Origin: a virus
Lineage: Duplodnaviria > Heunggongvirae > Uroviricota > Caudoviricetes
Strand: one strand, 5' to 3'
Length of the DNA stretch: 30,105 bases
Virus record (IMG/VR): IMGVR_UViG_3300006151_000006
Span: 64,001 to 94,105 of that record
In this document: piece by piece, positions 9,743 to 30,105 of the stretch
Numbering within the stretch: the first letter of the stretch is position 1
Layout of the letters: the number at the start of each line of letters is the position of its first letter
Translations under genes and position numbers: made by a program
The notes under the pieces: generated by a model
Databases searched by the model: none
Told to the model about the DNA's origin: nothing
Seen by the model: the letters and a program-made list of their open reading frames with translations, nothing else

Positions 9743-12700
9743 ATGGCAAAGAAACTAAAGGTCGTAAAGAAGACAATTGAGTCTTTGGATGAACCTTGGT
9801 GCGACCCTGATGCGGGAACGTGCCATGACATCGAAGACATTGAAAACTTCATCAAGGCCCAGTTTGAGAAAGCAGCCTCTGATTTGAATGATGGACTCTC
9901 GAAAAAGCCATCTGTATTCAAACGCTCTCAAGAAAAGGGTGCGGACAACTGCTATCACATTTATGGGTTTGCCTCTGAAGAAGACTATCTCAACTGGAAT
10001 TCTGACCCTGACACATACGCAGAATTGCTATTGTCAGATGTTTCGCTGCCTGATACCGGTGGCGGCTCATCTGCTGTCAGCTATATTGTTTCGCTATTGC
10101 GTGAAACAAGCGGTGATATTGTGACGATTGACAATACGGTGAAACTGAATGTCAAATTCACATCACAGGAATTCAACCCAATTGATCAATCGACTAACGA
10201 CACTCAGGAAGGTGGCGTAATGACTGTGCAAACTCGATTGAATGAATCGGCACAATGGACGACCAAAGGAACTATCAATATTCCTTATATCCCCAGTGAT
10301 TCTGATAAGTGGTTTGAGGCAGACCTTACGTCCATGATGGCAAGTGGCCGTCAACAAGTGCGTATCATCGTCAAAGGCGAAACCACTGAGTTGAGCACAC
10401 GCTATTTGAGCTTTTGGGTTACAAGGACTACTCTTGGCTTGCAGCTTTCAACACTTTGGGAGCAACCAGTGACTGATGGAGTATTGCGATTGGGGTACTA
10501 TATCAATGGAGCGGTTGCCAAAACACTTCATGTACTGATTGATGGAAAGCGTAAAGTAGAATTCCCTCTCGGTTTGACAACTTACACCCAGACACCTTAT
10601 CAGTGTAGTATATCAGATACAGATGATGAGCCTAACAAAATCATCACACATGGGGTACACACTGTTCAGGCTTGGCTTTCTGTCAATAATTCTGATGTCG
10701 TTAGTGAGACGCTAACATCACAGCACATGATTGTCACAGATCCGGCTGATACAACACCAAGGTTGCTACTCAATGATCTAAAGCAATCCATCACGAACTG
10801 GACTACAGAACAGCTTTTTACATACTCACTTTATAATCCGTCGGGTCAGGCATTGCCATTGAAACTTGCTTTGATGAATTATGCCGGAACTGAAAATTAT
10901 ATGACACTTGACCTTGGCGAAGTTACGCCTAATGAACGCCGAGCACTTATCAATGTCATTGAAATTGAGTCCGATGAAGTGAGCATTGATGCTTATATGC
11001 GTTTCTTGTCAGGCGAAACCGAAATTCACGAAATGATTGGCTTTTCAGTGGATAACACTGAGAACTTTGCTCCGACAGCTGGCTATGGGATGGCGATTAA
11101 CCCTCGTTCTCGTACAAATGACGAAGTTAATCCGATGTCTATTATCAACAGTGTTACTGGTGAAATTGTGCCATCGGTTTGGAAGAATTTCGGACTTGTT
11201 ACGGATGGCTGGATTACCGATGAAGATAATAACAAATGTCTTCGTCTCCCTTCTGGCACATCTATCGACATAGATTATGAAACCTTCAAAGATTACATTG
11301 GTACAGATAATCGTCGCTCACTAACCATAGAGTTAGATTTTGCAAGTCGCAATGTCACGGACGAGAACAAGCCTGCTTTGAGAATGTGTTCATATATGCC
11401 CGATGAAAAGCCTCTTGGTTTTGAATTGCTTCCTATTAGTGGACGCTTCCTAACTCAATCGAATCGTAGTGTTGATGATCAGGACGTAGGCTTCTTGCGA
11501 GACAAGCGTACACATCTGATGGTCAATATTGTGTATGGCATCAACGGCTCGTCGGTCAATATGGTGCGAATATTTGTAAATGGTACTTGTTCTCGTGAAT
11601 TTACATGGGAAACATCCGATGTATTTGTGCAGTTTGTGGATGGTGTGCGTACATCGCAAGGTATTCGCCTTGGGTCTGTAGGTACAGACATAGACATCTA
11701 TAATCTTCGTATCTACCATACTGCGTTGTCGTCATCTGATGTGCTTCAGAATTATATGGCATCGCAAGCGAGTGTGTCGCAGAAATTGGCTATCCGTCAA
11801 GCAAATGATTTGCTGGGTGATGATGGCCGGATTTCTTATGCAAAAGCTCACGAGAAATACCAAACGATTTGTTGGTGTATCGACGAAGGTGCTCACCTCC
11901 CTGCTTATGGAGATACTAAGAAATACGAAATACTTTCTCCTGTAACCATTATTGGTCGTAAAACCGCTGATGGATTTAAGGATGAGTTTTTGTATAACTG
12001 GTTCTTGCTTGGACAGGGCACGTCTTCAATGACCTATTTTGGTTGGAACATTGCAATGAACCCCAAGACCAAAAACCATAAAGACGATGCAGTATTAAGC
12101 AAAGTCAAGGGTACTTGGGTTGATATTCATGGAGTCGAACATAAAAGCGTCTATGCTTTGAATGATGGCGATCCTGAAGCAGCTAAACTTGTGGCAAAGG
12201 CAAACTGGGCCTCTTCTCAGCAAACACACAAGATGGGCTCTGTTAATGCTTTCAATGATTTGTGGAAAGCAGTCACTGGTGGCTCGACTATGACAAACAC
12301 TCCGGGTTACGAAAATTGCCGAGTATCGGTCAAACAGGAAGAATTCCTTGGCTTTGTTAAAATTGGCGATAATGAGCCTGAGTTTTTTGGGCTTTACACA
12401 TTTGGTCCGGGTAAGGGTGATAAGCCAACTTTTGCCTGTGATATGGATAAGTTTCCCCATTATTTGATGCTTGAGGGTTGCGACAACGGTCAGCCTCTGA
12501 CCAATCACCGCATCCCTTGGAATGATGACATCCAGCCAGATGAAGATGGTGAAATCTATATGTTCAATGGTGGTAAACAATGGGAAATCTGTCTCGGTTC
12601 GGCCGATAACGTAAGCTATTTCCGCAGTGCTTTCAACTTTGTATATCTGAATTCACCTCATATCCATCCGTTTGTTGGCAAACTGTCTGAACTTCAAAAA

Positions 12701-15700
12701 TCTCAGTCAGTTAATAACCAGCATTTTTATTGGGTAACACAGTCTGGGGATGGAGCTGCGCAATATGACCTATTCCGTTATGATGTGTTGACAGGGCAAT
12801 GGGTTGATGCTGGCGTTAACAAATTGGGCGATGGTCAGTATGCAAAACTTAATATGGTTACTGACTTGGGGGTCACTCCGGTATCGAATGTATGGGAAAC
12901 GGTTAATGAGCAATTCAAGACTGCTCGTGTGCAACGATTCAGAAATAATGCTCATCTGTATTTTAAGCGTGACGATGCTCTATATCATCTATGCTTTGTG
13001 CTCTTGATTGCGGCAACTGACAACCGAGCTAAAAATACATACTTGTATTTGGATTATTACGAGGGCCGCATTGTCATCCACTTTGCCCAAGATGACCTTG
13101 ACTCCATCAAGAAAACAGATAATGAGGGGCGTTTGAACAAACCGTACTACATTGAAACACACGACCGTAACGCAGACAATATGCCTTACTGGAATGGTGA
13201 AGAAAATGCTATGTATGACTTGTTTGAGTTGGCTTTCCCTGATGAAATGCGCTCAATGATGCGCTCGATACTGACAGCGATGGCATCATTGGCCTCTCAG
13301 CAAGGCGCAATTATGGAGGCGAATAGTGACCCATTGATGCAATTCATGGAGAACTATTACTACCGCATTGCTCGTTCAATTCCAGCTGTAGCATACAATG
13401 AGACAGCTCGAATTCGTTACGAGACAGCAGCTATTGCATGGCAACAGGGCAAATATGTGGCTTCAGTTCATCCGCTTGCCCAGTCACTCGGCTCTCAGTT
13501 GGAGAATGAGCTGGAATGGATGCGTCAACGTCTAATCTATATTTCATCGTATGCTTCCTACGGACAATTCTCGATGAATGGACAAGGCTCGTTGACATTC
13601 CGTTCTGTAAAGATGTTGAGTGGCGAAAACCCAACATACGATTTCGATCTGACTCCAGCATTGTGGCTCTATCCGGCAGCAAGCTCAGGTTCGTCAACAT
13701 ACTTTGGTACAGGAAATTCGCGTCCTGTTCGTGTTAAGGCTGGCGAGGTCTTTAGGCTTGCCGGTATTCCTTCTGATGGCAATACCAACATTCAGCTACA
13801 TGGCATTGACTACTACACCAATATTGGTGAATTTGGTAATAAACCGCTTCAGGGTGAGGCCTTTGGTATAGCCGGTGAACGATTGACAGAATTTGTCGCC
13901 TCTGCTATGCCAGCAGAATTTAGACCTCCCAAAGTTACTGCCACTGCACCAATGTTGCGTAAGATTGATTTGCGGAATCGAGTTTCTGTAACCGGTGCTT
14001 TGGATTTCTCTGCACAAACACGCTTAGAGTCATTAGATGCTTGGGGGACTTCTATCACACAGTTTATGGTTGGCGATCCGACTAAGATTACCAAATTGTC
14101 TTTGCCTGCAACATTGACTGCCTTATCAATGGAAAATTACACCAATCTCGATACTGAAAATTTTGAGATTGAAGGAGTTGCGCATATTCAGACTCTGACG
14201 TTCCATAATTGTCCAAATCTGAACAGCCAGCAACTGATAACCAGTTTGTTGACTGAGGATGGTTCTCAGTTAAGCAGTTGCAAGATTGACAACATTAACT
14301 GGACCAACTTCTCTATCAACAACTTGATGAAACTGGTGGATATAGATTCTGATTTGGAAGGCTATATTGAAATCAACTCAAGCCATAACTTGACTTTTGA
14401 GATGAAACAAAAGATTTTGGCAAAATGGGGCGATGTTGATAAAGAAAACAACAAGCTACGGCTGAAATACACTCAGCGTCCTTTACAGAATGTTAGCGTT
14501 GTCGGTCAGAAATACTTCGATAAGACAGGCACTTATCAATTGAAGGTACAGCCAAATTCCAATAATGCCAACAAATTCTCAGCAATTCGTTGGGCGATGA
14601 CAAATAATGGTTATGCTACAATTGACTCCAAGACTGGTATAGTTACAGTTACGAAAGTTGGCACTGAGGAGCAAGAGCCCATCGCTCAAATCACAGTGAC
14701 CGTTACTTTGACAGATGGAACAGAGGTTTCTGATACTGTGACCGTAGGTTTCTATCATAGGTCTTGTAAATTAGGTGATTATGTATTTGCTGACGGTTCA
14801 TACTCTAATGTGCTGGATCGTTCTAAGACAGTAGTAGGTATTTGCTTCTATATTGACAGGAAAAATCCGCAAAACCGTTTGGCCGTTGCATTATCAGATG
14901 TGTCAACTGGTATTCAGTGGGGATTGTATTTCAACAATACAACCACTGATCAGAACTGGATAGAAGGTAGCGCAAATGACTTGAATTACAATATTCGAGA
15001 TATAGAACTGGACGATACATTGAATTATGATGTTTATGACATACCTACAATTCAAAATATCACCAGTCGTGGCTTAACGACATTGGATGGTAAGGATAAT
15101 GCGTATATCACAGCTGAAACATTTCGCGATGAAGAATACGGTGATGAAGATGGATTTAAGATAATGAGTCCTACTACAGCAATGGGCGATATGGGCTTTC
15201 AAGAGCTTCGATCTCCTATCGCTGGGTATAAGGAGGGTGAAATAATTTCAAAAAGTTTATTGAAAACTTTACAAATTATTGAGCACCGCAACATCATATT
15301 GAATGACTCTGCGGTGAACCTTCCAGTGCCTTATGTGGGTGACAAAATGACTGAAATGGAGCACCTTAATCAGTTGATGTTAAATATTGTTAACGATTTG
15401 GGTGCTGCAAAATACCGTCAATTTTATTACCCAGCGGCTTCACTTTGTCACAGTTATCAGCCTGCGGTTAAAACCGACGAGGAGCTTTCTCCACTATTCT
15501 TAGCCGGTAAGTGGTCATTACCCTGTGAAGGCGACTTAGCTCGTTTGTGCTGGTTCCATCGCTGTGGTTACGAAGTTGGCGATGAAGGCGCGATCTTCGC
15601 TCAGGGACGAGTGGATGGAGTTTTTACAGCATTCACGAACACTTGGTACTGGAGCGCATCTGAGCTCAGTCGCTACTACGCATGGTACGTCTACTTCTCG

Positions 15701-15766
15701 GATGGCAGCACGTACGGCGGCAGCAAGTACGGCAGTAGCCGGGTTCGTGCAGTTGTCGCATTTTGA
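9743..15766 (+). CDS. DGR target: 2007-aa multidomain tail-associated/receptor-binding protein (LamG-like, CotH-kinase-like, LRR-like, Ig-like, C-terminal C-type-lectin-fold variable region)
   Basis: The last 110 bp match the TR with adenine-only mismatches. The C-terminus YWSASE...AWYVYF..G......SRVRAVVAF is the CLec-type DGR target signature. Internal domains were recognised from motifs only. Confidence 0.9.
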   Translation: MAKKLKVVKKTIESLDEPWCDPDAGTCHDIEDIENFIKAQFEKAASDLNDGLSKKPSVFKRSQEKGADNCYHIYGFASEEDYLNWNSDPDTYAELLLSDVSLPDTGGGSSAVSYIVSLLRETSGDIVTIDNTVKLNVKFTSQEFNPIDQSTNDTQEGGVMTVQTRLNESAQWTTKGTINIPYIPSDSDKWFEADLTSMMASGRQQVRIIVKGETTELSTRYLSFWVTRTTLGLQLSTLWEQPVTDGVLRLGYYINGAVAKTLHVLIDGKRKVEFPLGLTTYTQTPYQCSISDTDDEPNKIITHGVHTVQAWLSVNNSDVVSETLTSQHMIVTDPADTTPRLLLNDLKQSITNWTTEQLFTYSLYNPSGQALPLKLALMNYAGTENYMTLDLGEVTPNERRALINVIEIESDEVSIDAYMRFLSGETEIHEMIGFSVDNTENFAPTAGYGMAINPRSRTNDEVNPMSIINSVTGEIVPSVWKNFGLVTDGWITDEDNNKCLRLPSGTSIDIDYETFKDYIGTDNRRSLTIELDFASRNVTDENKPALRMCSYMPDEKPLGFELLPISGRFLTQSNRSVDDQDVGFLRDKRTHLMVNIVYGINGSSVNMVRIFVNGTCSREFTWETSDVFVQFVDGVRTSQGIRLGSVGTDIDIYNLRIYHTALSSSDVLQNYMASQASVSQKLAIRQANDLLGDDGRISYAKAHEKYQTICWCIDEGAHLPAYGDTKKYEILSPVTIIGRKTADGFKDEFLYNWFLLGQGTSSMTYFGWNIAMNPKTKNHKDDAVLSKVKGTWVDIHGVEHKSVYALNDGDPEAAKLVAKANWASSQQTHKMGSVNAFNDLWKAVTGGSTMTNTPGYENCRVSVKQEEFLGFVKIGDNEPEFFGLYTFGPGKGDKPTFACDMDKFPHYLMLEGCDNGQPLTNHRIPWNDDIQPDEDGEIYMFNGGKQWEICLGSADNVSYFRSAFNFVYLNSPHIHPFVGKLSELQKSQSVNNQHFYWVTQSGDGAAQYDLFRYDVLTGQWVDAGVNKLGDGQYAKLNMVTDLGVTPVSNVWETVNEQFKTARVQRFRNNAHLYFKRDDALYHLCFVLLIAATDNRAKNTYLYLDYYEGRIVIHFAQDDLDSIKKTDNEGRLNKPYYIETHDRNADNMPYWNGEENAMYDLFELAFPDEMRSMMRSILTAMASLASQQGAIMEANSDPLMQFMENYYYRIARSIPAVAYNETARIRYETAAIAWQQGKYVASVHPLAQSLGSQLENELEWMRQRLIYISSYASYGQFSMNGQGSLTFRSVKMLSGENPTYDFDLTPALWLYPAASSGSSTYFGTGNSRPVRVKAGEVFRLAGIPSDGNTNIQLHGIDYYTNIGEFGNKPLQGEAFGIAGERLTEFVASAMPAEFRPPKVTATAPMLRKIDLRNRVSVTGALDFSAQTRLESLDAWGTSITQFMVGDPTKITKLSLPATLTALSMENYTNLDTENFEIEGVAHIQTLTFHNCPNLNSQQLITSLLTEDGSQLSSCKIDNINWTNFSINNLMKLVDIDSDLEGYIEINSSHNLTFEMKQKILAKWGDVDKENNKLRLKYTQRPLQNVSVVGQKYFDKTGTYQLKVQPNSNNANKFSAIRWAMTNNGYATIDSKTGIVTVTKVGTEEQEPIAQITVTVTLTDGTEVSDTVTVGFYHRSCKLGDYVFADGSYSNVLDRSKTVVGICFYIDRKNPQNRLAVALSDVSTGIQWGLYFNNTTTDQNWIEGSANDLNYNIRDIELDDTLNYDVYDIPTIQNITSRGLTTLDGKDNAYITAETFRDEEYGDEDGFKIMSPTTAMGDMGFQELRSPIAGYKEGEIISKSLLKTLQIIEHRNIILNDSAVNLPVPYVGDKMTEMEHLNQLMLNIVNDLGAAKYRQFYYPAASLCHSYQPAVKTDEELSPLFLAGKWSLPCEGDLARLCWFHRCGYEVGDEGAIFAQGRVDGVFTAFTNTWYWSASELSRYYAWYVYFSDGSTYGGSKYGSSRVRAVVAF
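15653..15762 (+). repeat. DGR variable repeat (VR)
   Basis: Ungapped 110-bp alignment to 16394-16503 with 16 mismatches, all opposite TR adenines in AAC codons; invariant 3' segment cgggttcgtgcagttgtcgcatt. Confidence 0.97.
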
Positions 15767-15799: not shown

Positions 15800-15852
15800 T
15801 ATAAATACCGGAATATCTATATTGTTTTGCAAATCGTTGGCACACAACATAT

Positions 15853-15860
15853 TATCTTTG
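15853..15860 (+). promoter_or_regulatory. Possible Bacteroidetes housekeeping promoter -7 box (TAnnTTTG) upstream of avd
   Basis: tatctttg at 15853-15860. A tttg at 15826-15829 is 23 nt upstream, slightly longer than the usual spacing. Confidence 0.35.
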
Positions 15861-15862
15861 GT

Positions 15863-16258
15863 ATGAAACACCAATCTTCACAAACTCCTGTATATAGATT
15901 GACGGAACGACTTATGATTCTTTCAATTCCGATGATTAGTCGTCTCCCGAAATCGACTCCCTATCAAGTTTTGGGAGGTAAGTTTATAAGTAATGTAAAT
16001 GATTGTTTGGACATCATTTCAATTGCTTATGGACTTGACAGAAATTCAGCAACATATATTACCGCTCGTAAAGAATGTCATGGAAACCTACACCTACGCT
16101 TGACATCATTGAAAACAATGGTGCGCGTCTTTAAAAAGGTGAGGTTTACTAATCATAAGGGAGACTTGATTCCTGTAGTTTCGCCACGACATGAGGGTGA
16201 GTTTGTTGACTTAGTGAACCAAATCAGCGTCCAAATAGACGCATGGCTTGGGCGATAA
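15863..16258 (+). CDS. avd: DGR accessory variability determinant (Avd-like four-helix bundle)
   Basis: About 131 aa, basic and helical, with VY......RLPK..Y.LG and a terminal QI..W; sits between VR and TR. ATG at 15863 preferred; frame open from 15827. Confidence 0.8.
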   Translation: MKHQSSQTPVYRLTERLMILSIPMISRLPKSTPYQVLGGKFISNVNDCLDIISIAYGLDRNSATYITARKECHGNLHLRLTSLKTMVRVFKKVRFTNHKGDLIPVVSPRHEGEFVDLVNQISVQIDAWLGR

Positions 16259-16520
16259 AGTTGTCGCAGTGCTTCATATTACATAACTAAGGTTGTGGAT
16301 ATTAATAATCTCTTATCATTGAATGGGTGTGGCACAGAGTTACTGAGAAATCAGGACTTTGTTACGACGAAAATTAGCCACATGACTGCGCGTAGCGCAT
16401 CTGAGAACAGTCGCAACAACGCATGGAACGTCAACTTCTCGGATGGCAACACGAACAACAACAACAAGTACAACAGTAACCGGGTTCGTGCAGTTGTCGC
16501 ATTAGATGCGGAGATTAAGG
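16259..16520 (+). ncRNA. Putative DGR template RNA (structured leader plus TR); ends uncertain
   Basis: A nested stem-loop with a GAAA tetraloop at 16328-16382 lies directly upstream of the TR. DGRs are known to use a TR-containing RNA. Confidence 0.55.
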
Positions 16521-17785
16521 AAGGTTGGGTGGTTGCCAAAGATGATTGTTGTGCCAATAAATATTCTACTTCTCAATGTGAAGAATGGCGCATGATTGAG
16601 AACTGGGAATTGTGGAATCTTATGTATGAGATATACTACGGAGACTACAAACCCACTACATCAACATGCTTCATCGTAAAGTTCCCATCATTCAGGGAAA
16701 TCTTTGCAGCAGCGTTTCGTGATAGGGTTGTTCAGCATTGGATTTGTCTAAGGCTGAACCCTCTATTTGAAACCCGCTTTTTCTTACAGCACAACGTATC
16801 TTTTAATTGCAGGAAAGGCTTCGGGACTTTAAGAGCAGCACAAGCCCTTAAAGTTGATATGGAGTATATGAGTGATATGTGGACGAAAGATGATGTCCAT
16901 GTCGGAAGATTTGACATTAAGGCTTTCTTTATGCACATTGACCGCAATATTCTTTGGGCCTTACTGGAGCCATTTATCAAGGAGAATTATCACGAGAAGG
17001 ATCTTGATGTCTTGCTTAGATTGACGAAACAGCAAGTATTTCATTGCCCTCAGGATGATTGCATTAGGAAATCGGACATCCGCATGTGGGATTTCCTACC
17101 ATTTCACAAGTCTATGTTTAATAGACCGAGACACTTTGGTATGGCGATCGGGAACATTCTCAGTCAATTGTGTGCAAACTTCTACTTGTCGTTCTTTGAT
17201 GCGATAATGTTGAAATTGTGTATGAGATATGGCTGTTGTTATAAACGATTTGTCGATGATTTCACTATCGTAGGTAGTAAAGAAGCAATCTTGAAAATCC
17301 GAGCCATTGCTGAAAGATGGCTCAGCCTGTATCTCCATCTGACTTTGCACAGAGACAAATTCTATCTCCAGAAAGTATCTCACGGCTGCAAATTTGTGGG
17401 AACAACAATTATGCCTCATAGAACATATTTGGCAAGCCGTACTTATGGCGGAATGCACGATCAAATCTTTACATTGGCAGCTCTTTGTCGTTCTATCGCC
17501 AATCGTGGAGCTACCTTGAGTAAATTGAAGCGATTGCAGAACGAGGTATCTTCAATGAATTCTTACATTGGTTTCTCAGTTCATCATCGTTCATTTCAGA
17601 TGCGCTCAAAACTCTATAAACCCTATCTTGAAGACATTCGCAAGGTTTGTGTATTAAACTCTGATATGGGATTTGTAAGAATTAAGCGAAAATATGACTA
17701 TCAACAACAATTAATACGCAAGGAGGAACTTAGATATGAATATCCAAACTGGAACTACGAAACCGGAAGCAGTGACCTTCGTTAA
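16382..17785 (+). CDS. DGR reverse transcriptase (start uncertain: GTG 16295, ATG 16382 or GTG 16529)
   Basis: Motifs REIFAAAFRDRVVQH, DIKAFF, GMAIGNILSQLCANFYL (DGR-type SQ), RFVDD and KFVG; adjacent to TR and avd. Confidence 0.93.
   Translation: MTARSASENSRNNAWNVNFSDGNTNNNNKYNSNRVRAVVALDAEIKEGWVVAKDDCCANKYSTSQCEEWRMIENWELWNLMYEIYYGDYKPTTSTCFIVKFPSFREIFAAAFRDRVVQHWICLRLNPLFETRFFLQHNVSFNCRKGFGTLRAAQALKVDMEYMSDMWTKDDVHVGRFDIKAFFMHIDRNILWALLEPFIKENYHEKDLDVLLRLTKQQVFHCPQDDCIRKSDIRMWDFLPFHKSMFNRPRHFGMAIGNILSQLCANFYLSFFDAIMLKLCMRYGCCYKRFVDDFTIVGSKEAILKIRAIAERWLSLYLHLTLHRDKFYLQKVSHGCKFVGTTIMPHRTYLASRTYGGMHDQIFTLAALCRSIANRGATLSKLKRLQNEVSSMNSYIGFSVHHRSFQMRSKLYKPYLEDIRKVCVLNSDMGFVRIKRKYDYQQQLIRKEELRYEYPNWNYETGSSDLR
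16394..16503 (+). repeat. DGR template repeat (TR)
   Basis: Contains 12 in-frame AAC codons and is identical to the VR at every non-adenine position. Confidence 0.97.
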
Positions 17786-26312: not shown

Positions 26313-27029
26313 ATGAAAGAATTTTCTGTGTCCGTTAGGAAACTGACGGATGAAGACCTCATGCGGGAAGCGTGTGAGTGCACGTTCTTAGGGAAGAGTC
26401 ACCAGTCACTCCTTTCTATCTACAAATCGGAACACTCGCCAGCTCGAACACAAATGTTCTGGATAAAGCTGGACAGAATCCCCTTATTTATTGCAACACA
26501 CCTATTACGCCACCATGTAGGTTCAATCCCATTCCAGCTAACTTGTCGTGATGACCGAGAGGGTGGCAACCCCGGTCTTATTGCCAAAATTGACGCGATA
26601 AATGAGAAGCTGGCAATGTTGTTGTCTATGATTAACAATGCCAGCTATGGCACTCAGGAAGACCTTATTAGGTCTATAATTTCTGAATGCGATTGGCTGA
26701 AAGAGAACGCAGATCGTTACACCCCAGTAAATTTGGGTCTATGTCTTAATGCTCAGGCATTATTGGATATGTCAAAGTTACGACTCTGCACAGGTTGCGC
26801 ACATCGTGAAACTGTCATCGTCTTTCAAGCGATTAAGGCAAAAGTTGCTGAGGTTGACCCAGAACTTGCATCATTAATGGTGCGGAAATGTGTCTATCGA
26901 AATGGACTTTGTGGAGAACCCCGCTGCTGCGGATTTAACCACTCGCCAGCTTTTAAAGCTGAATTGACTGACTATCTCCAGTATTTCTCGTCTAAACAAA
27001 AAGGATTGCTCCATGAAAACAGTAATTAA
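26313..27029 (+). CDS. thyX: ThyX-like flavin-dependent thymidylate synthase (phage type)
   Basis: EHSP, RHH...TCR, NAQAL..SKLRLC..A..ET, and C-terminal CVYRNGLCGE..CCG motifs. ATG at 26313 preferred. Confidence 0.75.
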   Translation: MKEFSVSVRKLTDEDLMREACECTFLGKSHQSLLSIYKSEHSPARTQMFWIKLDRIPLFIATHLLRHHVGSIPFQLTCRDDREGGNPGLIAKIDAINEKLAMLLSMINNASYGTQEDLIRSIISECDWLKENADRYTPVNLGLCLNAQALLDMSKLRLCTGCAHRETVIVFQAIKAKVAEVDPELASLMVRKCVYRNGLCGEPRCCGFNHSPAFKAELTDYLQYFSSKQKGLLHENSN

Positions 27030-29214
27030 GCGAGATGGCCGCTCTGTGCCATTCGACCATACACGAATCGACCGCGCTATATTAGCAGCAATGAAAGAGG
27101 TCGGTACAATAGATTCTGATTTTGCTCTTGACATCGCAATACAGATAGGTGACAAATGCCCTGCTTCAATCACCGTAGAAGAAATTCAGGACTTGGTAGA
27201 AGAAGCTCTGATGGCATCCCCTTACAAAGATGTTGCTCGTGCTTATATCTGTTATCGTGACAACCGCAAGAAGGCTCGTAACAGAGAAAGCGACCAAACT
27301 ATACTAAGCATCATCAACGCAGAGCACAATGACATCACACGCGAGAACGCCAATATGAATACCGACTCGCCGGCAGGCATGATGATGAAGTTTGCAAGCG
27401 AGACCACGAAACCGTTTGTCGACGACTATCTGTTGTCGGAAGAAGCGCGTGAAGCTGTCAACAACAACTATCTGCACATACACGACAAGGATTACTATCC
27501 GACAAAGTCGCTCACCTGCGTCCAGCATCCTCTGGATCGGATATTGCGTCATGGCTTTACCGCAGGCCACGGCGAATCCCGGCCTGCAAAACGCATCGAG
27601 ACGGCCAGCATAATAGGCTGCATATCGCTCGAAACTGCCCAGAACGAAATGCACGGCGGCCAGGCCATTCCCGCGTTTGATTTCTATCTGGCACCGTTTG
27701 TGCGCAGCTCTTACATTGAAGAGGTGAAAAATCTGGAAAATCTGACTGGCCAGGATTTAAGTCATCTGTATAATGCCGAGATCAGCGATTTTGATAAAAA
27801 GCCGCTGGACGGTCTTCAGGGTGACGAAAGATTCCTGCAGCATGCCATAAACCGTACCACCTCACGTGTGCATCAGGCCATGGAAGCATTCATACACAAC
27901 ATGAACACCATCCATTCCCGTGGCGGCAACCAGGTGGTGTTCAGCTCGATCAACTACGGCACCGACACTTCGGCCGAGGGCCGCTGCATAATCCGCGAAC
28001 TGTTGCTTTCCACATACGAAGGGGTGGGCAATGGAGCCACCGCCATATTCCCCATACAGATATGGAAGAAAAAACGTGGGGTAAGCTATCTTCCCGGCGA
28101 CCGCAACTACGATCTTTATCAGCTTGCCTGTAAAGTTACCGCGAGGAGGTTTTTTCCTAACTTTGTGAATCTTGACGCCACGTTCAACCGTCATGAAAAA
28201 TGGGATGCCAATGATCCCCGGCGCTATGAATATGAGGTCGCGACTATGGGTTGCCGTACCCGTGTGTTTGAAAACCGCTATGGTGAAAAAACATCTGTGG
28301 GCCGTGGCAACATCTCATTCTCCACAATCAATATAGTGCGCATTGCCATCGAGCTGATGGGCATACAGGACAAGGAAGAGAGGATACACCGCTTCTTCCG
28401 CAAACTCGACGAGATACTTGACGTGACCGCCAGGCAGCTGTGCGACCGTTATGACTTTCAGAAAACTGCTCTTGCCAAGCAGTTCCCGCTCCTGATGTCG
28501 CGTCTGTGGAACGGAGCCGACACGCTTGGTCCCAACGACACCATCGAGTCTGTCATAAATCAGGGCACACTCGGAATCGGATTTATCGGTCTTGCCGAAT
28601 GTCTGGTAGCTCTTATCGGACAACACCATGGCGAAAGCGACGAAGCACAGGCGCTCGGCCTGCGTATTGTCAGCCACATGCGATCACGGGCCAACGAGTT
28701 CTCTGAACGCTATAATCACATTTTCCCGGTGCTTGCCCCTCCGGCCGAAGGCCTTGCCGGACGGTTCACCCGGCGCGACCGCAAATCATTCGGACAGCTC
28801 TCCGGCATCACCGATCGTGAATACTATACTAATTCCAACCATGTGCCTGTCTATTACCACTGTTCGCCGCGACACAAAGCCATTATCGAGGCTCCGTATC
28901 ACGAACTCACGCGTGGCGGCCATATTTTCTATGTGGAAATAGATGGCGATGCCACTCACAATCCTGAGGCCATTGCCGACATCGTGGATCTGATGGACAA
29001 ACACAATATAGGCTACTGTTCGGTAAACCATAATCGCAACCGCTGCATGTCATGCGGCTACGAGGATGCTTCGGCCGAACTCACCGAATGCCCCAAATGC
29101 CACAGTAATGACATAGACCGTCTGCAGCGCATCACCGGATACCTTGTAGGAACCACTGACCGCTGGAATTCTGCAAAACTTGCGGAACTCAACGACAGGG
29201 TAGTGCATCAATAA
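27013..29214 (+). CDS. nrdD: Anaerobic (class III) ribonucleotide reductase with N-terminal ATP cone
   Basis: VIKRDG ATP cone, ENANMN, HIHD, MGCRT (catalytic Cys), PAE, CxxC/CxxC Zn site and glycyl-radical loop RITGYL. Confidence 0.97.
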   Translation: MKTVIKRDGRSVPFDHTRIDRAILAAMKEVGTIDSDFALDIAIQIGDKCPASITVEEIQDLVEEALMASPYKDVARAYICYRDNRKKARNRESDQTILSIINAEHNDITRENANMNTDSPAGMMMKFASETTKPFVDDYLLSEEAREAVNNNYLHIHDKDYYPTKSLTCVQHPLDRILRHGFTAGHGESRPAKRIETASIIGCISLETAQNEMHGGQAIPAFDFYLAPFVRSSYIEEVKNLENLTGQDLSHLYNAEISDFDKKPLDGLQGDERFLQHAINRTTSRVHQAMEAFIHNMNTIHSRGGNQVVFSSINYGTDTSAEGRCIIRELLLSTYEGVGNGATAIFPIQIWKKKRGVSYLPGDRNYDLYQLACKVTARRFFPNFVNLDATFNRHEKWDANDPRRYEYEVATMGCRTRVFENRYGEKTSVGRGNISFSTINIVRIAIELMGIQDKEERIHRFFRKLDEILDVTARQLCDRYDFQKTALAKQFPLLMSRLWNGADTLGPNDTIESVINQGTLGIGFIGLAECLVALIGQHHGESDEAQALGLRIVSHMRSRANEFSERYNHIFPVLAPPAEGLAGRFTRRDRKSFGQLSGITDREYYTNSNHVPVYYHCSPRHKAIIEAPYHELTRGGHIFYVEIDGDATHNPEAIADIVDLMDKHNIGYCSVNHNRNRCMSCGYEDASAELTECPKCHSNDIDRLQRITGYLVGTTDRWNSAKLAELNDRVVHQ

Positions 29215-29220
29215 CCACAC

Positions 29221-29712
29221 ATGTACGACCATAACACATCTTCTATATTAAGTGTGCTTCAGATCGTGCCGGGAACGTCAGTTGACGGTCCCGGTCTTCG
29301 CACTTCGGTCTACTTGGCCGGATGCACCCACAGATGCCCCGGATGCCATAATCCCGCGTCGTGGGATTTCAATGCAGGAACCCCGATGTCGGTCGATGGG
29401 ATCATGTCGCAGATCATGGCCCACGGTTTCAATGTGACACTTACGGGCGGCGACCCGCTCCAGCACCGGTCTGTAGAAGCACTTCGCCGCCTTGTAAGGG
29501 CTATACGTGCCGAAGGGCTGACTATATGGTGCTATACCGGCCACACATACGATGAGTTACGTGCGATGCCTGATATTGCGGATATTGTGGACTGCTTCGA
29601 AGCCATTGTCGACGGTCCGTATATCGCCGCGCTTCGCGATCCCTCGTTGCCGTTTCGCGGATCCTCCAACCAGCGCATTCTAAGGCCCGACGGTTCCGAA
29701 TGGCATAGATAA
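29221..29712 (+). CDS. nrdG: Anaerobic RNR activating radical-SAM enzyme
   Basis: DGPGLR, CTHRCPGC (CxxxCxxC), GGDP and RGSSNQR motifs; directly after nrdD. Confidence 0.96.
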   Translation: MYDHNTSSILSVLQIVPGTSVDGPGLRTSVYLAGCTHRCPGCHNPASWDFNAGTPMSVDGIMSQIMAHGFNVTLTGGDPLQHRSVEALRRLVRAIRAEGLTIWCYTGHTYDELRAMPDIADIVDCFEAIVDGPYIAALRDPSLPFRGSSNQRILRPDGSEWHR

Positions 29713-29730
29713 CCACATTATAGCCAAATA

Positions 29731-29773
29731 TAAAATCCGGCATGTCATCATGGCATGCCGGATTCGCTTTTTT
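29731..29773. terminator. Bidirectional terminator between nrdG and the convergent peptidase gene
   Basis: Stem aatccggcatg (29734-29744) / catgccggatt (29754-29764), with an A-run on the left and a T-run on the right. Confidence 0.8.
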
Positions 29774-29785
29774 ATCTGTCTGGAT

Positions 29786-30105
29786 TTACTGTTTCTTGGA
29801 ATCTATCTCTTTGAGCAGTTCGTTCACAGCGGTGATCAGCTGGTCGTCAATGCCCGCAGCCAGACGCTCGGGAGTGTTAGCTACTCGGATGTCCGGTTCT
29901 AACTGCTTGTTTTCCAGATAAGAGCCGTCAGGTAGACGGTATCCGATGATGGGAATACCGAAATACATGCTCGGGTCCTGCAGTGTCACCCAATTCACCG
30001 ACGTCATGGTGCCCGGCACAGGCATACCTACGAGTTTGCCTATACCGCGGTGTTTGTAGACCCATGGAGTGCCGTAGGCGTTGCTGTAGTTGGCTTCTCC
30101 CTGTA
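29786..30105 (-). CDS. S41 family (tricorn-like) peptidase, C-terminal fragment; host gene truncated by the window end
   Basis: The minus frame is open to the window end: QGEANYSNAYGTPWVYKHRGIGKLVGMPVPGTMTSVNWVTLQD...FGIP...LEN.QLEPDI. Confidence 0.85.
   Translation of the reverse strand, partial: QGEANYSNAYGTPWVYKHRGIGKLVGMPVPGTMTSVNWVTLQDPSMYFGIPIIGYRLPDGSYLENKQLEPDIRVANTPERLAAGIDDQLITAVNELLKEIDSKKQ

Follow-up and report, generated by a model that had tools for sequence, protein, structure and literature searches.

Proteins that join a CotH-type kinase domain to a hypervariable tip have been described several times. CotH was listed among the target domains of diversity-generating retroelements (DGRs) by Ye 2014 (PMC4159848), and category f1 of Wu et al. 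2018 (PMC5758913) consists of ~2000-aa targets that combine CotH with Laminin_G_3 motifs and are probably encoded by phages. Roux et al. (bioRxiv 10.1101/2020.04.01.020958) found a CotH-like kinase in PC_00012 and suggested from a model that the variable repeat (VR) may touch the kinase. In Bacteroides, domain group 3 of Macadangdang et al. 2024 (bioRxiv 10.1101/2024.11.15.621889) comprises targets of >2000 aa with a CotH assignment (5JDA), carbohydrate-binding motifs beside the CotH motif, and leucine-rich repeats (LRRs). In addition, the cultured temperate phage BS-TP1 of Bacteroides salyersiae (PMC12694917) encodes a 2187-aa protein, gp27 (PQ571274.1, XPO95160.1), that is annotated only as hypothetical; that study makes no mention of a kinase. 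Here, we analyzed a 30,105-nt window, bases 64001–94105 of the 94.1-kb IMG/VR phage record IMGVR_UViG_3300006151_000006, which carries a 2007-aa DGR target protein in the open reading frame (ORF) at 9743–15766 (+ strand), as given by the ORF list and its translation.

This target has the same ~2000-aa length as those of Wu f1, Roux PC_00012, and Macadangdang group 3, and shares their order of a carbohydrate-binding or LamG module, the CotH motif, LRRs, and a C-terminal VR in a C-type-lectin (CLec) fold. Like it, they are phage-encoded and have Bacteroidales hosts. The architecture is already published, having been in the literature since 2014–2018, and the present analysis is a correct re-discovery of it. 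Our contribution is to support it quantitatively by structure and to show that its catalytic core is invariant, which amounts to confirmation and detail rather than discovery. Our literature search found no functional study. On balance, we think that the record represents a gut Bacteroidales phage of roughly 94 kb, and that the target is a large tail- or baseplate-module protein with a DGR-diversified CLec tip and a divergent CotH-type kinase domain.

The ORF is the target of a complete DGR, as a first-pass annotation made from the sequence had proposed. Its last codons hold a 110-nt VR (15653–15762, +), which recurs as a direct repeat in a 110-nt template repeat (TR; 16394–16503, +). All 16 of the 16 mismatches between the two fall at TR adenines (9 A>G, 6 A>T, 1 A>C), and every one is at codon position 1 or 2. 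Because adenine-only mismatches are the DGR signature, they identify the large ORF as the target. The VR stands at the 3′ end of an Lcl_C-type target, and a reverse transcriptase (RT) ORF adjoins it (16295–17785, +), with a match to RVT_1 at residues 132–372 (E 3e-8) and a 5′ part that overlaps the TR. The TR lies in frame within this 5′ extension, and the conceptual RT therefore matches Lcl_C at residues 4–67; translation of the true RT probably begins downstream of the TR. An ORF between VR and TR (15827–16258, +) had no Pfam match and is, by position alone, the probable Avd accessory gene; its syntenic counterpart in BS-TP1 carries a four-helix-bundle annotation.

This arrangement is like that of Mtd from Bordetella phage BPP-1, the classical DGR receptor-binding tail-fiber protein, which also ends in a CLec-fold VR diversified by adenine mutagenesis and whose gene is likewise followed by avd, TR, and RT. 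Unlike the present target, Mtd is about 380 aa long and is not known to have an enzymatic domain.

The module of most interest lies at residues 745–1273 (11975–13561, +), where the first-pass annotation had placed a CotH-type kinase at about the same residues. An AlphaFold2 (AF2) model of this region, made with 63 diverse homologues in the alignment, had a mean predicted local distance difference test score (pLDDT) of 93.2 and a predicted template modeling score (pTM) of 0.93. Foldseek matched the model best in the PDB to 5jda and 5jd9, both Bacillus cereus CotH (E 1e-6, probability 1.0), and best in Swiss-Prot to B. subtilis CotH (Q45535, E 1e-7), followed by Rhizopus CotH proteins. Matches among AlphaFold database (AFDB) clusters were mostly CotH where they were named, and many of the best were unnamed. 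The modeled bilobal atypical-kinase fold was superimposable on solved CotH. Given the AF2 confidence and the CotH neighbors in Foldseek and AFDB, we regard as secure the predicted assignment of residues about 745–1273 to the CotH-type atypical kinase (protein kinase-like, PKL) fold. After CotH, the next-best structural neighbors were PI4KII-alpha and PI3K, which are lipid or small-molecule kinases, and Fam20.

The domain is nonetheless divergent. It is only 13–14% identical to Bacillus CotH (5JD9/5JDA; B. subtilis Q45535), carries ~220 residues of insertions relative to B. cereus CotH, and falls below the Pfam threshold. Its catalytic loop has a K-N pair, and the N-lobe KK pair of CotH is not recognizable. 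Whereas Bacillus CotH is a standalone protein of 360 aa, the phage domain is embedded in one of 2007 aa.

To relate the two at the residue level, we used 23 canonical CotH domains gathered from Bacteroidota genomes as a reference. In the C-lobe of these domains, nothing is invariant except the Asp of n-W-D-x-Y...N-N-x-Y-L-Y and, 23–26 residues away, the Pro and Asp of P-W/Y-D-x-D. By hhalign and hmmsearch, T-D1093-N-R-A-K1097-N1098-T-Y-L-Y of the target aligns with the first motif at its invariant Asp and conserved Asn (nwDxY..nNxYLY), which marks D1093-N-R-A-K1097-N1098 (13019–13036, +) as the putative catalytic loop. The second motif aligns with Q-D1117-D1118-L-D1120, so that D1118 and D1120 fall on the canonical D-x-D and D1117-D1118-L-D1120 (13091–13102, +) becomes a candidate metal-binding motif. 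The D-x-x-x-x-N and D-x-D pattern read in the first pass is thus correct and aligns with the canonical CotH core. The motifs that it quoted all lie where it placed them, namely, DIYNLRIYHTALS at residues 651–663 (11693–11731), KANWASS at 819–825 (from 12197), GLYTFGPGKGD at 883–893 (from 12389), DNRAKNTY at 1093–1100 (from 13019), and QDDLD at 1116–1120 (from 13088).

These residues are strongly conserved across 255 homologues with identity down to about 33%. D1093 was kept in 254/255, D1093, K1097, and N1098 in 253–254/255 with gaps making up the remainder, and D1117, D1118, and D1120 all in 253/255. In the N-lobe, K819, N821, S824, K891, and D893 were invariant apart from gaps in fragments. 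As judged from the alignment, such conservation of the core is what an active site under maintenance would show. Experiments on B. subtilis CotH have established D228 as catalytic and D251 as metal-binding (PMC7821199). Their separation fits the 23–26 residues seen in the canonical domains, and we infer that D1093 and D1118 are their equivalents. A sample from the class of a metagenome-assembled genome (MAG) labeled Staphylococcus (G064) yielded no Bacillus-type CotH, so this mapping stays inferential.

For the 2007-aa member itself, the relationship to CotH escapes sequence-only methods, and a phmmer search of the target protein against PDB sequences returned no CotH chain. The family, however, reaches CotH through other members and through profiles. 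The Pfam CotH profile (PF08757) matched 14 of the 63 homologues (best E 2.5e-5), and a Phocaeicola massiliensis prophage homologue matched CotH profile positions 143–232. A Pfam scan of ten distant homologues, made to find where the CotH-positive members lie, had no matches. Aligned with hhalign, the phage family and the 23 canonical domains matched over the catalytic core at E 3–5e-5 and a probability of 67–74%. A hidden Markov model (HMM) of canonical CotH matched 184/255 phage-family segments, and 159 of its 191 matches began at HMM positions 140–179, which correspond to the catalytic core. Against the 2007-aa target, the same HMM gave E 0.005, again in the catalytic core. Within the N-lobe, G-Q-G-T-S-S (757–762) is a plausible counterpart of the canonical R-G-N-S-S loop, and hhalign in global, low-mact, and N-lobe-only modes gave no trustworthy alignment of this lobe to canonical CotH.

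We consider it fairly likely that the domain is an active phosphotransferase, counting together a protein kinase and an enzyme acting on some other substrate. In the proposed mechanism, the CotH-type domain would bind a nucleotide and a divalent metal and transfer phosphate. D1118 and D1120 would hold the metal, D1093 would be the catalytic base, and K1097 and N1098 would belong to the catalytic loop. CotH phosphorylates spore-coat proteins as the coat assembles, so by analogy we favor action within the producing cell during virion or tail assembly. The targets would then be the protein itself or neighboring tail proteins, and the hypervariable tip would bind ligands on the host surface. An active domain would place a protein kinase in structural virion proteins of temperate phages that are among the most widespread in human gut Bacteroidales, and would link hypervariable targeting to enzymatic activity. 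A large family, a strictly conserved core, and the cultured relative BS-TP1 make the question accessible to experiment.

Several results weigh against an active CotH-type kinase. PF08757 did not match the 2007-aa protein, five pieces of it, or residues 740–1320 even at E 10, a PF08757 search of the phage genome was negative, and the family profile found no CotH chain among PDB sequences. The N-lobe alignment to CotH was not significant (hhalign E 0.08). Moreover, the near-invariant KK pair of canonical CotH had no clear counterpart, so nucleotide binding is putative. Equating D1093 and D1118 with D228 and D251 is based on invariance and spacing (24–25 vs. 23) rather than on residue-level superposition. 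A scan of the 94-kb genome for a CotB/CotG-like Ser/Lys/Arg-rich repeat substrate turned up only off-frame junk ORFs. Finally, Benler et al. 2021 noted a hypervariable C-type lectin joined to a CotH kinase domain and called it “currently unstudied” (PMC8008677).

The serious rival is that the domain is a pseudokinase, a catalytically dead scaffold or ligand-binding module that acts as a spacer or second adhesion surface in a tail fiber, much as the CotH proteins of Rhizopus serve as surface invasins. On this view, the conserved acidic cluster would bind metal or glycan without phosphotransfer. The canonical N-lobe lysines are not recognizably retained, the Rhizopus invasins are among the structural matches, and the flanking lectin-like, LRR, and immunoglobulin (Ig)-like modules are typical of adhesins. 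CotH domains are also common in extracellular multi-domain proteins, including ones sorted by the type IX secretion system (T9SS), cellulosomal ones, and ones linked to chitinases. Yet, pseudokinases usually lose at least part of the active-site residues, whereas D-x-x-x-K-N, D-D-x-D, and several N-lobe Lys and Asp residues are strictly invariant in this family, and we therefore consider this reading unlikely, although it keeps an appreciable share of our belief.

Less probable still is an active enzyme that is not a protein kinase but phosphorylates a glycan, lipid, or small molecule, or performs AMPylation-type chemistry as some atypical kinase-fold enzymes do. Such an enzyme could modify host envelope polysaccharide. 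Like the preferred reading, it is consistent with the conserved core, and the PI4KII-alpha, PI3K, and Fam20 neighbors point in its direction. The adjoining ConA-like lectin domain suggests carbohydrate handling, as do the carbohydrate-binding motifs that Macadangdang et al. noted beside the CotH motif. We give even less credence to the idea that the DGR lectin tip is a programmable module for recruiting substrates or targets, through which adenine mutagenesis would re-aim the specificity of the kinase toward host envelope or virion proteins during infection.

Although some extracellular ATP is present in the gut lumen, we judge it very unlikely that a virion-borne kinase phosphorylates host surface or envelope proteins, or itself, outside the cell when the hypervariable tip binds a receptor, since this would need extracellular ATP, CotH acts in the ATP-rich interior of the mother cell, and the kinase domain is set apart from the CLec tip by ~630 residues of LRR and Ig modules. 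In its favor, one tail-module protein unites a kinase-like domain with a variable tip for binding, and a VR-kinase contact is possible in the model of Roux et al. (bioRxiv 10.1101/2020.04.01.020958). Phosphorylation of host surface targets on binding was what the first-pass annotation had suggested, and our analysis gave it no support. Overall, its interpretation is partly supported, with kinase activity predicted and virion location suggested by gene context. We retain assembly-time action by a putative kinase in the producing cell as the preferred reading.

The remaining modules of the target are defined with varying firmness. It matched PHROG 24896 (E 1e-101). An AF2 model of residues 1–745 (pLDDT 87.6) predicts that the N-terminal region (residues 1–444, 9743–11074, +) opens with a small alpha/beta domain and continues as a series of Ig-like beta-sandwiches reaching to ~440, with a jelly roll at 445–684. 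Foldseek matched this model to strings of MG/Ig-like domains and to phage tail proteins with low TM scores. The first-pass annotation began its account at 11080 and so left out these ~445 N-terminal residues. Structural relatives of residues 1–745 in BFVD included Bacillus phage G gp353 and cr52_1, a protein of a crAss-like phage with an internalin-like annotation, and the N-terminal scaffold may accordingly be common to proteins outside the CotH-bearing family. Residues 445–684 (11075–11794, +) were confirmed by their modeled fold as a ConA/LamG-like jelly-roll beta-sandwich.

Of the five modules that the first pass had named, CotH and ConA/LamG are upheld by fold, whereas the Pfam matches of the other three are all sub-threshold. 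LRR_5 matched residues 1437–1522 (14051–14308, +) at E 1.5e-4 and 22.1 bits against a cut-off of 27.7, and the LRR-like module probably covers about residues 1370–1570. The Ig-like (Big_2/Rib-like) domain at residues about 1607–1668 (14561–14746, +) matched RibLong (E 2.5e-3, 19 bits vs. 27) and Big_2 (E 0.04, 14.3 vs. 22.8). For the LRR/Ig region, the feature neighbors in a language-model atlas (Atlas) were LRR_4 and Big_2 proteins at 0.8, which serves as a lead only. The CLec-fold tip (Lcl_C/DUF1566-type, residues 1905–2004, 15455–15754, +), which contains the VR, fell slightly below the Lcl_C cut-off (E 2e-7, 31.7 bits vs. 34.9). With the LRR and Ig assignments taken from sub-threshold matches, the module order is probably Ig-like sandwiches, ConA-like jelly roll, divergent CotH-type domain, LRR-like repeats, Ig-like domain, and variable lectin tip.

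Upstream of the target gene, PHROG matches identified a baseplate hub (twice), a tail fiber, and a tail protein. The locus is collinear with that of BS-TP1, which encodes a tape measure, two hubs, a tail fiber, an 842-aa protein, the 2187-aa target gp27, a four-helix-bundle Avd, and an RT. More genes follow the RT in BS-TP1, one of them with a structure-alignment note of Baseplate_J. The shared order thus runs through hubs, tail fiber, a protein of 840–850 aa, target, Avd, RT, and more baseplate genes. The CotH region shows 32% identity to gp27 across 96% of its length, and the two proteins are distant in sequence. These PHROG neighbors and the synteny with BS-TP1 make it very probable that the target protein belongs to the tail or baseplate. 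The homologous baseplate-hub gene of BS-TP1 has a 4-kb tape-measure gene directly upstream. The window, by contrast, has just two small ORFs (124–579 and 708–1103) ahead of its hub homologue (1362–2462), so the tape measure of this phage must be situated elsewhere or be differently organized.

The family is large, with 484 representatives at 50% identity, nearly all within ~2000-aa proteins. Homologues were found at 102 places in genome assemblies, mostly of Bacteroides, Phocaeicola, Prevotella, Parabacteroides, and Muribaculaceae. Some contigs with a target homologue were in MAGs labeled Saccharibacteria, Akkermansia, Oscillospiraceae, Anaerovoracaceae, Eggerthellaceae, or Staphylococcus, and these are probably mis-binned Bacteroidales phage contigs or mislabeled bins. 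Around the “Staphylococcus” genome G064, the class sample has G004, G015, and G034 in common with the Bacteroidota sample. Canonical CotH-family genes are plentiful in the phylum of the hosts and occurred in 19/61 and 70/121 sampled Bacteroidota genomes, often in multiple copies (≤11), and were usually part of multi-domain proteins of 450–1200 aa. One genome in the tally of 70/121, G152, is unpublished, and no claim is based on it.

Toward the end of the window, at ~27000, G+C content rises from about 0.41 to 0.50–0.52 (27000–30105) and the GC skew changes sign. The 733-aa ORF at 27013–29214 and the sequence onward appear to differ in composition from the phage and are possibly host-derived or flanking DNA.

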